Assembly (NCBI GenBank): GCA_963703345.1
Contig: OY969814.1
Span: 192,001-256,000 of the forward strand
Source of the DNA: an uncultured Chloroflexia bacterium
Lineage (GTDB): Bacteria; Chloroflexota; Dehalococcoidia; DSTF01; JALHUB01
Length of the DNA stretch: 64,000 nt
Reading direction: 5' to 3'
Shown here: one piece after another, positions 18,872 to 55,716 of the stretch
How the letters are laid out: the number at the start of each line of letters is the position of its first letter
Position numbering within the stretch: the stretch's first letter is position 1
The notes under the pieces: model-generated
Told to the model about the DNA's origin: nothing
Seen by the model: the letters and a program-made list of their open reading frames with translations, nothing else
Database searches by the model: none
Position numbers and translations under genes: made by a program

Positions 18872-21091
18872 ATGATTGTTGACCAGCAACTGATTGAAGA
18901 ACTGTCGCTTTCCCTCGACGAGTACCGCCTCATCGTCGAGAAGCTTGGCCGCGAGCCCAACGAAGTCGAACTGGGCATGTTCGGCGCCATGTGGAGCGAG
19001 CACTGCGGCTATAAGAACAGCAAGCCGCTCCTGCGCATGCTCCCAAACACCGGCCCGAACATCCTCACGAGCATGGGCGGCGAGAACGCCGGCGCTATCG
19101 ACATCGGCGACGGCATCTGCGTCGTGATGAAGATAGAATCGCACAACCATCCGTCCGCCATCGAGCCCTACGAAGGCGCTGCTACCGGCGTCGGCGGCAT
19201 AGTACGCGACATCTTCGCCATGGGCGCGCGACCCATCGCAACCCTCGACTCCCTGCGCTTCGGCCCGCTCTCCGAGCCGCGCAATCGTTACCTCTTCTCC
19301 GGCGTCGTCGGCGGCATCGGCGGCTACGGCAACTGTCTGGGCATCCCGACCATCGCCGGCGAGGTCAGCTTCGCGGACCCTTACTCCGCGAACCCGCTGG
19401 TGAACGCCATGTGCGTAGGGATCGCGCGCATCGACCACCTCGTGTCCGGTCGCGCCGCGACGCCCGGCAACATCGTCCTGCTCGCAGGCGCCGATACGGG
19501 CCGCGACGGCATCGGTGGCGCCAACGTCCTCGCCTCCCGCGTCTTCGACGAAGGCAGCGCGGAGCTTCGCCCGACGGTGCAGGTGGGCAACCCATTCATG
19601 GAAAAACTACTCATGGAGGCCTGCCTGGAGCTCGCCGAGAAGCACCCCGACTGGATCGACGGTATCCAGGATCTGGGCGCCGCCGGCCTCACGAGCTCAA
19701 CCGTCGAGGCTGCCGCCCGCGCCGGCAACGGCATGGTAATTGACATTGCCCGCGTGCCGAGGCGGGAGCGCGGCATGCTTCCTCAGGAGGTGATGCTGTC
19801 GGAGTCGCAGGAGCGGATGCTCGTCTTCCCGAAAAAGGAGCACGAGGACGATGTGCGCCGCCTCCTGGAGCGCTGGGAGCTGAAAGTCGACGCTATCGGC
19901 CGCGTAACGGACGATGGCCTGATGCATGTCCTCGACGGCAACGAGGAAGTAGCGGCAATCCCCGTCAACGTGCTGACGACGCCGCCCGAGTACCGGCGCA
20001 TCGGACAGCGGCCACGCTACCTCGACGACGTGCAGGCGTACGACCTCTCGCGCCTGCCGGACGTGGACGATGCGGCGAAGGCGCTGCTCCGCCTTCTTTC
20101 GACGCCGGAGTTGGCGAACAAGCGCTGGGTGTGGCGGCAATACGATCATCAGGTCTTGACCAACACCGTCGTCGGGCCGGGAAGCGATGCGGCGGTCCTG
20201 CGCGTCAAAGGCACGAAAAAGGGCCTCGCCCTCACCAACGACGGCAACGGCCTCTACTGCTACCTCGATCCCTTTGCCGGTGGGGCCATCGCCGTCGCCG
20301 AGGCGGCCCGAAACGTGGTCTGCGCGGGCGGCCGTCCCGCGGCCATCACCGACTGCCTGAACTTCGGCAATCCCGAGAAGTTGGACGTCTACTACCAGAT
20401 GGAGCAGACAATCCGCGGCATAGCAGCGGCGGCCGAGAAGCTGGGCGCGCCGATAATCTCGGGCAACGTCAGCCTCTACAATGAGACGAACGGCGAGCCG
20501 GTACTGCCGACGCCTGTCATCGGCATGCTGGGTCTGCTGGACGACGTCGACCGTCGCTGCGCAATGGGCTTCCAACGCGAAGGAGACGTGGTCTTCGTCC
20601 TCGGCACTCTTCTCGACGCGCCTGTGGAGACCCTCGCCGGCAGCGAGTATCTGCGTGAGGTGCACGGCCTGGTAGCCGGACAGCCGCGAATCGACCTCGA
20701 TTTGGAGGCGCGCGTGCAACAGCTTTGCCTCGAAGCGATTGCCGGTGGTCTTCTTCGGTCCGCTCACGATTGCTCGCAGGGCGGCCTGGCCGTTGCCCTG
20801 GCGGAGAGTTGCATCAGCGGCCGCATCGGCATGGTCGGCGAGCAACTCGGCGCTGTGAGCAGGCTCGACGCCGTCCTCTTCGGCGAGGCGCAGTCGCGAA
20901 TCGTCCTCTCCTCTTCGCCGGAGCGGCGGAGCGAGCTTGAGGCGCTGGCCCGCCGGCACGACGTTCCGCTGACCTATCTCGGACAAGTCGGTGGCGACCG
21001 CCTCGTGCTGCCTGATGCCCTGGACGTTTCGCTCGCAGAGCTAACGGACGCCCACAGTCGCGGCTTGCCCGACGCGCTGGCCGGCGCGTAA
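18872..21091 (+). CDS. purL: phosphoribosylformylglycinamidine synthase subunit PurL
   Basis: MWSEHC.YK, ESHNHPS, DLGAAG, SESQERM, LNFGNP and SGNVSLYN. Confidence 0.98.
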   Translation: MIVDQQLIEELSLSLDEYRLIVEKLGREPNEVELGMFGAMWSEHCGYKNSKPLLRMLPNTGPNILTSMGGENAGAIDIGDGICVVMKIESHNHPSAIEPYEGAATGVGGIVRDIFAMGARPIATLDSLRFGPLSEPRNRYLFSGVVGGIGGYGNCLGIPTIAGEVSFADPYSANPLVNAMCVGIARIDHLVSGRAATPGNIVLLAGADTGRDGIGGANVLASRVFDEGSAELRPTVQVGNPFMEKLLMEACLELAEKHPDWIDGIQDLGAAGLTSSTVEAAARAGNGMVIDIARVPRRERGMLPQEVMLSESQERMLVFPKKEHEDDVRRLLERWELKVDAIGRVTDDGLMHVLDGNEEVAAIPVNVLTTPPEYRRIGQRPRYLDDVQAYDLSRLPDVDDAAKALLRLLSTPELANKRWVWRQYDHQVLTNTVVGPGSDAAVLRVKGTKKGLALTNDGNGLYCYLDPFAGGAIAVAEAARNVVCAGGRPAAITDCLNFGNPEKLDVYYQMEQTIRGIAAAAEKLGAPIISGNVSLYNETNGEPVLPTPVIGMLGLLDDVDRRCAMGFQREGDVVFVLGTLLDAPVETLAGSEYLREVHGLVAGQPRIDLDLEARVQQLCLEAIAGGLLRSAHDCSQGGLAVALAESCISGRIGMVGEQLGAVSRLDAVLFGEAQSRIVLSSSPERRSELEALARRHDVPLTYLGQVGGDRLVLPDALDVSLAELTDAHSRGLPDALAGA

Positions 21092-52946: not shown

Positions 52947-54018
52947 CTATTTCCACGTTTGGCCTAGAATCCGTAGCCAGTTCTCGTGCGTCACCTTTCG
53001 CAGGGCTGCCTCGTCATAGCCGGCCGTCCGCAGCGCCTCGATGAGCTTCGGCAGGCCGGCAACGTCCCCCAACTCCGCCGGGATTGTCGAGCCATCGAAG
53101 TCCGAGCCGAGCGCGACGTGATCGATGCCGATGCGTGCGGCAACGTAGTCGAACGTGGCGCACAATCTCGGCGATCGGCGTGTCAGCCTCCTGGTGTCCG
53201 TCGGCGCGCAGATTGCCCGCAAAGAAGATGACGCCGATGACGCCGCCCGACGCGCCCACGGCGTCGAGCTGCTTATCGGTAAGGTTGCGGGTGGAGCGGC
53301 AGAGCGCGTGGGCGGCGGTATGAGTCACGGCGAGCGGCGCCTCGGAGAGGGCCGCCACGTCCCAGAAGCCGCGCTCGTTCAAGTGCGAGAGATCGAGCAT
53401 GATTCCCAGCTTGTTGCAGGCGCGGACAAGGTCCTTCCCGCGCTCGCTGAGACCGGGCCCTACGTCGGCCGAGCCGGGGAAACGGAATGGCGCGCCCGTG
53501 GCGAAGACGTTCGGACGGCTCCAAGCGATGCCCAGCGAGCGGAGGCCAGCGGAGTAGAAGACGTGCAGCGCGTCGAGGTCCGGGTCAATCGCCTCCGCGC
53601 CCTCGAAGTGCAAAACCGCGGCAATGTCCCCTCGGCGCAGGCAATCGGCGATTTCGTCGACGTTGCGGACCACGCGCAGCTTGCCGCCGGACTGCGTCTC
53701 CAAACGGAAGAGGTCCGCCATGACCGCCCTGGTGAACCGCTGCGCATAAGCCAGCCCTAGCGGCGGTGGCAGCGGGATGTCGTAGCCTTCGTCCCCGAAC
53801 GCGAGGGGACCTGGCGTGTCGTGGCCGGATTCGCTCGGAGGAACGAAGATCGCGAAGAAGCCGCCGCCGAAGCCCCCCTCGACGGCGCGCGGAAGGTCAA
53901 CGTGGCCGCGACTGCTGCGCTCTAGGAAAGAGCGGTCGCCGTCCGGACCGGGACAATGGAGGGCGACGAGTGTGTCGTTGTGGCCGTCGAAGACGGGCGG
54001 CCCGGATGGCGCAGGCAT
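52947..54018 (-). pseudogene. membrane dipeptidase (M19) split by a single frameshift
   Basis: DGHND, HFEGAE, DLSH and RNLTD are in one frame. The C-terminal GIDHVALGSDFDG..ENWLR is in another frame, with the switch near 53153. Confidence 0.85.
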
Positions 54019-54532: not shown

Positions 54533-54577
54533 GACGGAGTTCATGTGGACAGATTCTGTGGAATCTGCTACAGTCGA

Positions 54578-54653
54578 TGGTGCGCCGGGGGAGATTCGAA
54601 CTCCCGACCTCAGGGTTAGCGGCCCTAAGCTCTATCCGCTGAGCTACCGGCGC
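54578..54653 (-). tRNA. atypical tRNA: Arg-type body, anticodon GCT, C33, encoded CCA
   Basis: GCGCCGG TA GCTC AGCGGATA GAGC T TAGGG CCGCTAA CCCTG AGGTC GGGAG TTCGAAT CTCCC CCGGCGC A CCA forms a complete 76-nt cloverleaf with a short variable loop. Confidence 0.9.
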
Positions 54654-54703
54654 ATCACGAGGAGAGTGGATCGTGCTAACAGGCGCCTGTCCACTCTCTT
54701 CTA

Positions 54704-55429
54704 TTATTCCGCTTCCTCCGAACTCGCTTGTGGCACCTCGTATTCCTTCATCTGGTCGATCAACGCGAACACGAAAACCCTATCTTCACCTTCGAGGTCG
54801 AAGGGGTTAAAGTCCACCGTCAGAGACACGCGTCCGCCGCTTCGCAATTTGAGTAGCCGAGTATGACCATCGCCCGACGGCGGATGTGGCCGATTCGTCT
54901 GGTCCGGCTTACTTTGTTGCCGGCGCTTCCCCTTGGTGTCGCCGGTGGCCGTCTTCTTCACCGGGGCTCTGTTCCGTGCCCTCTTTGATATATGGGAGGC
55001 AATTGGTAAGTCAGCGGCCCTGGCCGCGTTTATCAGAAAGCTCGCCGCCTTGCGGCGCGTAGGATCCGTCGCACCCAAATTCGTCAAGGCGTCGTCGAGC
55101 ATCTTAGGGGTCATGCTACGGAGTCCATCGACCAAGTCCGCGCCGTATGCGTCGCGTAACATCTCTGCTAACAGCGCTTTGCGTTGGTCGTTGTTAGCCC
55201 CAGCGAGATTCGCAAGTTTGTCCATAGGCACGTCCCCTTCAAGAAGTCCAAGGAACCGAAGCCCTGGCATTAGCTGCGCGCCAACACTTCCAGCGAACTT
55301 TGGCTCCCACAGAGAACGATCTATCCGGCTAGGCGTCGTACCCATGTCCTTTAGCCAATCAAGGCACGTGACGAAAGTCGCGTAGCTAATGTAGGTCGGT
55401 AGGCGGTGATCCGTCTGTTCTTGCACCAT
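54704..55429 (-). CDS. hypothetical protein (DUF5343-like)
   Basis: AAAGGAG RBS. PTYIS..F..P.RIDRS..LRFLGL resembles DUF5343 (from recall). More AT-rich than the flanks. Confidence 0.7.
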   Translation of the reverse strand: MVQEQTDHRLPTYISYATFVTCLDWLKDMGTTPSRIDRSLWEPKFAGSVGAQLMPGLRFLGLLEGDVPMDKLANLAGANNDQRKALLAEMLRDAYGADLVDGLRSMTPKMLDDALTNLGATDPTRRKAASFLINAARAADLPIASHISKRARNRAPVKKTATGDTKGKRRQQSKPDQTNRPHPPSGDGHTRLLKLRSGGRVSLTVDFNPFDLEGEDRVFVFALIDQMKEYEVPQASSEEAE

Positions 55430-55560
55430 TGTGGCATCGCTCCTTTCCCTTACCGCACACCTTACGCGAGAAGCAGTGCCGCTGTCAAGCGGTGCGCGGA
55501 CACAGTTTGAGGTTCTATTCGGCACTGCCCTTAAATAGTCGCTGGAAGGCGGGCGATGCC

Positions 55561-55716
55561 ATGTTCCAGCGTGGTGACACACTGCGGCTTAGGGGTTCTG
55601 ACGGAAGGCCAGCAGTGCTTCGTGTTTGGAGGGATAAGGGTGACGGCTTATCGTTGTATTCTGAGCGTGGGTACGAAAAGGGCTGCCGGGTTGTCGGGCG
55701 CGGAGGCAACTGCTAG
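55561..55716 (+). CDS. possible small protein or gene remnant
   Basis: MFQRGDTLRLRGSDGRPAVLRVWRD looks protein-like but is short and has a weak RBS. Confidence 0.3.
   Translation: MFQRGDTLRLRGSDGRPAVLRVWRDKGDGLSLYSERGYEKGCRVVGRGGNC

Follow-up and report, generated by a model that had tools for sequence, protein, structure and literature searches.

What does a cell do with a tRNA that combines the body of one amino acid's tRNA with an anticodon for another? The question is raised by the only tRNA gene of the window (the whole 64,000-nucleotide stretch of DNA analysed here), which lies in a Chloroflexota genome (G000) of 2.28 Mb that is present as one contig and is 95.85% complete.

A tRNA of mixed identity

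ARAGORN labels this gene Ser(GCT) (anticodon GCT), and the Rfam model RF00005 matches it with 65.4 bits, the full model being covered. Read from the sequence, the acceptor stem (7/7), D stem (4/4) and T stem (5/5) are completely paired, and the anticodon stem consists of U27.G43, A28-U42 and three G-C pairs. The loop runs C32 C33 G34 C35 U36 A37 A38 (54622-54616), and the tRNA has A20 (54635), a variable loop of 5 nt (AGGUC), U26 opposite A44, and A73. The four paired stems, encoded CCA, CCGCUAA loop, short variable loop and U26/A44 that the initial annotation describes were found in the sequence. The read check over 54616-54622 that it recommended returned the same loop, with a 210-nt short-read contig from run X1 matching 54565-54774 with zero differences, a result provided by one contig at a depth of 3, whose independence from the assembly is uncertain. 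The coordinates are collected in Table 1.

Bacterial arginine identity depends on A20, C35, U/G36 and A/G73, and serine identity on G73 and a long arm (Table 1 of PMC9976931, in the part available). As the initial annotation had proposed, the arginine set is complete in the window tRNA (A20, C35, U36, A73) and serine identity is absent, the variable loop being short and base 73 being A; the anticodon GCU reads no Arg codon. Within its own genome it most resembles the tRNAs for Arg(UCG) and Arg(GCG), with alignment scores of 58 and 57 of 76; the other five Ser-anticodon tRNAs score 26-31. This is an intact, extra tRNA and a real feature, and its identity elements make it likely to be chargeable with arginine by the host ArgRS, which is encoded by a single-copy gene and has its N-terminal domain. 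C33 had been judged anomalous given the near-invariance of U33 in elongator tRNAs; the base is indeed C, but C33 is also found in 22 distinct viral cognate Arg tRNAs.

The genome keeps an ordinary set alongside this tRNA: the inventory that had been called for contains a normal Ser(GCU) tRNA, with its long arm, and normal tRNAs for Arg(UCU) and Arg(CCU). AGY codons in the tested window genes are aligned to Ser at 98 of 113 positions and to Arg at 2 (TCN codons, for comparison: Ser 132/161, Arg 2), and the codon for the serine of the PurL motif MWSEH, at 18995, is AGC. The initial argument against a reassignment of the code is thus borne out. Elsewhere in the genome, G000:C1:1041019-1041088 and 1904771-1904849 hold a degenerate copy of tRNA-Arg(CCU) and partial copies of the 3' end of tRNA-Lys(UUU), as integration scars typically do. 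In the window, the dipeptidase gene (M19) at 53014-54018 apparently shifts frame near its 3' end, its Pfam match ending at model position 255/319.

Table 1. Features of the window associated with the tRNA gene (window coordinates).
Feature	Position	Strand	Evidence
tRNA gene, Arg-type body, anticodon GCU (Ser AGY), C33, encoded CCA	54578..54653	-	ARAGORN, Rfam, sequence
Anticodon loop CCGCUAA; C33 = 54621, G34-C35-U36 = 54620-54618	54616..54622	-	Sequence
Insertion, 1,149 nt	54538..55686		Empty sites in runs X2, X3, X5, X6
241-aa DUF5343-like ORF, upstream of tRNA, same strand	54704..55429	-	ESM Atlas
Predicted sense promoter for ORF and tRNA, TTGACA-18-TAAGGT	55459..55488	-	Promoter score 14.5
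Predicted sigma-70 promoter into tRNA from its 3' end, TGGACA-17-TACAGT, extended -10	54546..54574	+	Promoter scan
Predicted terminator of antisense RNA, hairpin 54659-54701 and tail	54659..54710	+	Folding
Predicted cis-antisense RNA, ~130 nt, spanning the whole tRNA	54580..54710	+	Promoter/terminator positions, family statistics

The insertion carrying the tRNA

The tRNA gene is part of an insertion between two divergent host promoters, with a GC content of 57%, against 64-67% in the flanks. The flanks are joined directly in run X6, and X2, X3 and X5 likewise lack the insertion. Its minus strand carries, in order, a predicted promoter, the DUF5343-like ORF, a hairpin and the tRNA; no transposase, integrase or other recombinase was found inside it. 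At the same site, genome G003 has a different single-gene cargo and G002 another sequence. In the congener G004, a related tRNA bearing the anticodon ACU precedes what is left of an IS1 transposase. The interval (window 54538-55686; L431:1191-2492) is an insertion hotspot between divergent host promoters. Next to the ACU tRNA element of G004 (L430:2497-3037) there is a DUF4258 gene with a small downstream ORF, an arrangement resembling a protein toxin-antitoxin pair, and in G003 four copies of a 38-nt sequence matching a tRNA 3' end are repeated at a spacing of about 116 nt just past a tRNA match (C7:185889-186273).

The 241-aa ORF was assigned through ESM Atlas (0.96 to DUF5343 clusters) and shares 60% identity, across 151 aa, with P0017, a protein listed under PF17278; it has no direct Pfam match. 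The sense promoter upstream of it was scored by a procedure specific to this analysis and is absent from a consensus scan. In 17 of 19 other genomes, homologues of the ORF have no such tRNA alongside, and no relatives were found in viral contigs. The two closest homologues (L690:1342-1417 in G555 and L691:2254-2328 in G618) have the same layout, with the hairpin and a similar tRNA body, and their tRNAs have a U31:C39 mismatch, weak antisense promoters and the anticodons CAU and CGU; the AGY anticodon is, therefore, not fixed in the lineage of DUF5343-like cassettes. These tRNAs may be detoxified copies, or the anticodon may be less important than supposed. A local origin from a resident Arg(UCU/CCU) gene by two loop changes, as initially suggested, finds no support, because the tRNA arrived on an insertion that close relatives lack and is one of a widespread family with U33-GCU, U33-ACU and C33-GCU members.

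A sporadic family of AGY-reading tRNAs

The search for the same loop elsewhere, another of the initial suggestions, was productive: scanning named genomes for the pattern returned 113 matches, of which 42 are tRNA-like and share the loop CCGCUAA. These come from Actinomycetota, Acidobacteriota, Alphaproteobacteria, Planctomycetota, Elusimicrobiota, Bacillota, Chloroflexota and others. Once positions 32-34 were left free, viral contigs yielded CUACUAA (22), CUGCUAA (20), CCGCUAA (7) and 4 others. At least 107 further distinct tRNAs came from a metagenome scan, with 52 CUACUAA, 35 CUGCUAA, 16 CCGCUAA and 4 CCACUAA among the matches listed. Members of the family have the anticodon GCU or ACU and U or C at position 33, and their distribution is sporadic and cross-phylum. 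The search patterns fixed an Arg-type D arm, so the Arg body of the family is partly a matter of construction; A20 is retained in 36 of 45 viral members with a pattern that freed position 20, and A73 or G73 is found in 50 of 54 intact C33-GCU members. It follows from the code table that GCU and ACU should be the sole non-Arg anticodons retaining C35 and U/G36, and both are found in the family.

Of 401 genomes of the class, 3 matched the family pattern, G000 among them; a locus from a Chloroflexota MAG (L059) coincides with one in G312, which belongs to the same class as G000. Genes for transposases of the IS1 and IS1595 types, integrase genes and unrelated genes lie next to family tRNAs. A fixed partner protein was considered and rejected, as an all-against-all comparison of 584 ORFs returned no recurring candidate beyond IS1/IS1595 transposases and genes shared by kin. 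A plasmid search gave only tRNA look-alikes at 75-81%.

Other unusual tRNAs occur in the same material. Leu-type tRNAs with the anticodon UUA (ochre suppressor-like) adjoin family tRNAs at L015:2028-2114, L088:362-445, L182:3495-3580 and L474:355-443, and neighbours with swapped identities at L012:1841-1930, L471:215-302, L493:1620-1712, L164:3120-3194 and L466:1323-1395 comprise Leu-like bodies with CCU or UGC, a Ser-like body with CCU, and tandem triple Arg-like arrays. Viral tRNAs with C33 (L189-L309) have the loops UCUCGAA (38 matches, 11 distinct), CCCCUAA, CCUCUAA and CCUAUAA, and no antisense features were found beside them within short flanks.

Separate anti-tRNA genes in sister loci

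The final family set consists of 183 distinct loci from the matches listed, the tandem loci L164 and L466 having been dropped because a neighbouring tRNA copy mimics an antisense match. In 42 of the 183, a separate small gene whose 5' end pairs with the anticodon arm of its own tRNA is found within 200 nt, downstream or upstream of the tRNA and on either strand. The 5' end of the predicted anti-RNA is AGC where base 34 is G and AGU where it is A, followed by G for C33 and A for U33; these pairs are Watson-Crick in 42/42, the base opposite C33 is G in 22/22, and the anti-RNA co-varies with its own tRNA at positions 27-34. The AGY start lies 6 nt past the -10 box in 27 of the 41 small genes with a scored promoter, a terminator ends 39 of the 42, the median length is 79 nt, and 35 distinct stems are represented. 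Rfam, run at gathering threshold on 12 of these 42 loci, returned tRNA matches only.

These 42 loci were chosen by pairing score, and an unbiased test was therefore added, in which sites were picked in 184 loci only by a promoter plus AGYRG. At 32 of the 38 sites obtained, pairing to the anticodon stem of the site's own tRNA is 5/5 and positions 33 and 34 are Watson-Crick, against a mean of 2.0 and a maximum of 8 in 1000 shuffles. Five anti-RNAs from four genomes are predicted to bind their own tRNA best in all five cases (-29 to -42 kcal/mol), with weaker predicted pairing to the retrieved host Ser and Arg tRNAs (-12 to -27 kcal/mol), and the anti-RNAs of two loci in one genome (L007 and L039, both in G424) are each predicted to prefer their own tRNA.

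The window tRNA has no such gene within its flanks. Genome-wide, the best matches in G000 have no promoter or are coding-like and no convincing candidate was found; out of 536 motif sites, a single one follows a weak promoter, and it looks like a chance occurrence. The GUUAGC of a sense-strand leader hairpin loop was considered as an anticodon partner and set aside, because G004 has no equivalent.

A predicted antisense RNA over the window tRNA

The layout at the window is different. On the opposite strand, a promoter predicted to read into the tRNA has its expected start near 54580-54582; it is supported by a comparison with 200 shuffles of the flank (p=0.005) and none of 3000 random genome windows scored as high. 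The hairpin that would end the transcript begins 5 nt past the tRNA 5' end (-28.2 kcal/mol, z -6.2), and its tail, which mixes U and A and is found on the antisense strand only, was missed by a simple terminator scan. From these signals we infer that an antisense RNA is transcribed over the window tRNA. Among the 50 CCA-ending tRNA genes of G000, the window tRNA is the only one with both signals, by promoter weights and thresholds that are specific to this analysis. The congener G004 retains both promoter boxes, with a diverged spacer, and has its own hairpin; the retained -35 region, however, is also DnaA-box-like. The initial annotation rightly picked out the unusual tRNA and missed both these antisense promoter and terminator signals and the family's anti-tRNA genes.

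An antisense terminator just past the tRNA 5' end was found in 46 further loci of the 183, that of the window tRNA included. No locus has both layouts (0/183; p=1e-6, a value that, like the others given here, is overstated because the loci are related), and this exclusivity may be the mark of two element lineages; IS1/IS1595 or integrase matches were found at 17 of 36 terminator-type loci versus 3 of 25 small-gene loci. The controls, cognate Arg(UCU/CCU) tRNAs from viral contigs, had a separate gene in 1/111 (the sole match, L345, being a neighbouring tRNA that mimics an antisense match) and an antisense terminator in 2/111; antisense features are, thus, present at 88/183 family loci versus 3/111 controls. 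In 22 cognate Arg tRNAs with C33, for which flanks were shorter, there were no separate genes and one antisense terminator.

The antisense promoter score at the tRNA 3' end averages 2.35 in the terminator group, 0.23 in the controls (p=2e-6) and 0.63 in the small-gene group, with p<=0.1 in only 15 of the 46 terminator-type loci. This separation needed a shuffle-corrected, position-limited test; a plain threshold did not separate the family (25/66) from AT-rich viral controls (36/111). In 73 strong upstream hairpins, an antisense tail was favoured 48 times and a sense tail 15 times. Neither anti-feature was detected in 95 of the 183 loci. The tRNA is intact in 71 of the 88 loci with an anti-feature versus 33 of the 95 without, and anti-features accompany 48 of 67 C33 members versus 40 of 115 U33 members, which argues against C33 as a mere knockout.

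A second cassette of this kind was found in the same genome (L688, C1:1995764-1996460), comprising a promoter, a 156-aa ORF with no Pfam match, an antisense terminator and a Leu-type tRNA with the Ser anticodon UGA, A73 and a long arm, with an antisense promoter 56 nt downstream. Apart from the window tRNA, this tRNA (C1:1996314) is the only one in G000 whose antisense terminator falls below -20 kcal/mol, and we predict that it acts as a Ser-to-Leu missense tRNA. A scan for Leu-body Ser(UGA) tRNAs gave 28 viral matches with 7 tRNA calls, one of which (L729) has the antisense layout; no separate small gene was found among the 28.

A proposed RNA toxin-antitoxin pair

These sequence features lead us to propose, with a little better than even confidence, that the window tRNA is a mobile toxin acting through Ser-to-Arg missense decoding and that an antisense RNA is its antitoxin, the two forming an RNA-only pair. 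The tRNA would be co-transcribed with the DUF5343-like ORF and charged with arginine by the single host ArgRS, and would then compete with the host Ser(GCU) tRNA at AGC and AGU codons, generating Ser-to-Arg errors that would be harmful to the cell. Misreading of AGY codons by an arginylated tRNA was one of several functions put forward initially and becomes the leading prediction, given the Arg determinants and the GCU anticodon. In the small-gene form, the anti-RNA would nucleate on the anticodon and unzip the anticodon arm, whereas in the window form the antisense RNA would pair along the entire tRNA. If the antisense RNA ran down, through element loss, phage infection or stress, the tRNA would be released. 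C33 probably dampens decoding, and would offer the anti-RNA a G-C pair missing in the host Ser tRNA; it may stop decoding entirely. Harm is suggested by the excess of intact tRNAs at loci with an anti-feature, together with the toxicity of other missense tRNAs, reported for E. coli (PMC5389517 and PMC10404621, available parts).

A broader proposition, to which we give an even chance, is that amino-acid-swapping tRNA toxins with anti-tRNA RNA antitoxins make up a general class of RNA-only modules, serving addiction or abortive infection, on mobile elements throughout bacteria. Arg or Leu for Ser and Leu for ochre would be among the swaps, the anti-RNA would start with the codon and zip open the anticodon arm, the window locus would be the overlapping-antisense form, and G000 would hold a second example. 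A literature search, confined largely to the main texts of open-access papers, found no account of Arg-body RCU tRNAs or natural anti-tRNA RNAs, and the partner anti-tRNA RNA is apparently undescribed so far. If the proposal is true, natural small RNAs target a specific tRNA through extended anticodon-arm pairing, corruption of the genetic code is a switchable toxin of mobile DNA, and the persistence of costly missense tRNAs on elements is explained; the tRNA/anti-tRNA pairs, with their 35 different stems, would also provide orthogonal switches for codon reassignment.

Alternative explanations

It is possible, if unlikely, that the tRNA is beneficial, as a mild regulated mistranslator or an anticodon-nuclease decoy, with the antisense RNA acting as an on/off switch rather than as the antidote to a lethal toxin. 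C33 should weaken decoding, and natural mistranslating tRNAs with a base other than U at position 33 have been reported (PMC11415595, available part); tRNAProN raised carbenicillin tolerance (PMC10404621, likewise), and many tRNAs with no detected anti-feature (33 of 95) look intact. However, tRNAs without an anti-feature decay, and each tRNA has one dedicated anti-RNA, as in the two loci of G424, a combination that fits a need to neutralise; a decoy, moreover, would not need an Arg body.

We consider it improbable that the window copy is an inactive remnant, i.e. a former missense tRNA disabled by C33 and flanked by the leftovers of a decayed IS1-like element. The absence of a transposase from the insertion, the IS1 transposase remnant at the same place in G004, the lack of the tRNA at this site in close relatives and the changed anticodons of the sister cassettes would all be consistent with such a history. 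All the stems and the CCA are intact, however, and the excess of anti-features at C33 members, together with the G opposite C33 in every anti-RNA, points to selection after C33 arose.

The polarity of the proposed pair could also be reversed, with the small RNA as a toxin that sequesters the Ser or Arg tRNAs of the host, in loose analogy to CreT, and the tRNA as a sponge. tRNA-sequestering RNA toxins are known (PMC8501985, available part), the small RNAs start with a Ser codon, and their predicted pairing to host tRNAs is moderate. This arrangement is nevertheless highly improbable: the small RNAs track their own tRNA at positions 27-34, often extending into the Arg-type D stem, cognate pairing is the stronger in every case compared, the window tRNA has no separate small gene nearby and no convincing one genome-wide, and it is the tRNA that decays when alone.

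A role as a non-ribosomal arginine donor for a transferase, also suggested initially, is hardly credible. C33 could bar the tRNA from ribosomes and a GNAT gene adjoins the insertion, but this is a host gene that relatives lacking the tRNA also have, the 145 neighbouring ORFs examined at 31 loci include no recurrent transferase family, and the RCU anticodons and anti-anticodon RNAs would be left unaccounted for. Finally, the probability that AGY codon reassignment or an assembly error accounts for the window tRNA is negligible, as only the GCU anticodon speaks for it, reassignment is contradicted by the normal long-arm Ser(GCU) tRNA and the alignment of AGY codons to Ser, and assembly error, like private decay, is ruled out by the identical X1 contig and the occurrence of the same loop at the tRNA-like loci of other genomes, in a family spread over many phyla.

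Comparison with known systems

The missense toxin that we propose has its closest functional counterparts in two groups of tRNAs, described here from the available parts of the publications cited. The tRNAProX of Streptomyces and Kitasatospora (tRNAProA/N/T; PMC10404621, PMC11415595) have, like the window tRNA, a natural dual identity and are accessory to a normal set, and share with the window family a non-U base 33, A34 variants and predicted missense decoding. They have Pro identity, A33/A34 and an adjacent ProRSx, whereas the window tRNA has Arg identity, G1-C72, C33 and G34, and no synthetase gene was found among the neighbouring ORFs scanned. The window family, unlike tRNAProX, is IS or phage cargo in many phyla and has a predicted anti-tRNA RNA partner; the word 'antisense' does not occur in the available text of PMC10404621. 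The allo-tRNAs and irregular tRNA polycistrons of Mukai et al. (PMC5389517) are likewise missense tRNAs found near transposons; they are toxic in E. coli, and a link to toxin-antitoxin systems was suggested. Their folds are 8/4 or 9/3, with long arms and Ser or Ala identity, whereas the window tRNA is canonical (7/5), short-armed and of Arg type, and the antisense partner predicted for the window family has no counterpart in the available part of that account. The cellular Arg(UCU/CCU) tRNAs of bacteria have the body, A20, C35, U36, A37-A38 and A73 in common with the window tRNA, which differs from them in G34, C33 and its accessory status.

Inactivation of a tRNA by pairing with its anticodon arm, as proposed here, has a precedent in synthetic oligonucleotides, which shut off tRNA-Ser(GCU) when directed against this arm (PMC6158751, available part); these are artificial 2'-O-methyl molecules used in lysate, whereas the anti-tRNA RNA is predicted to be the product of a natural gene. 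The type VIII loci SdsR-RyeA and CreTA (PMC10767807, PMC8501985, available parts) combine an RNA toxin with an RNA antitoxin, as proposed for the window pair; SdsR and RyeA overlap on opposite strands, as in the window layout, and CreT acts at the tRNA level. In the window pair, by contrast, a tRNA would itself be the toxin and its anticodon arm the pairing site of the antitoxin; CreA is a CRISPR-like guide that needs Cas. As to the two RNA genes of a type VIII locus, the tRNA is present, its partner in the window is predicted from a promoter and a terminator, and separate genes for a partner have good support at 42 sister loci. The sequence comparisons suggest, then, that the window tRNA would work like the tRNAProX and allo-tRNA missense tRNAs without their defining features, and that the putative pair resembles type VIII toxin-antitoxin loci, among which, if the proposal is true, it would represent a third mechanism for RNA-RNA systems.
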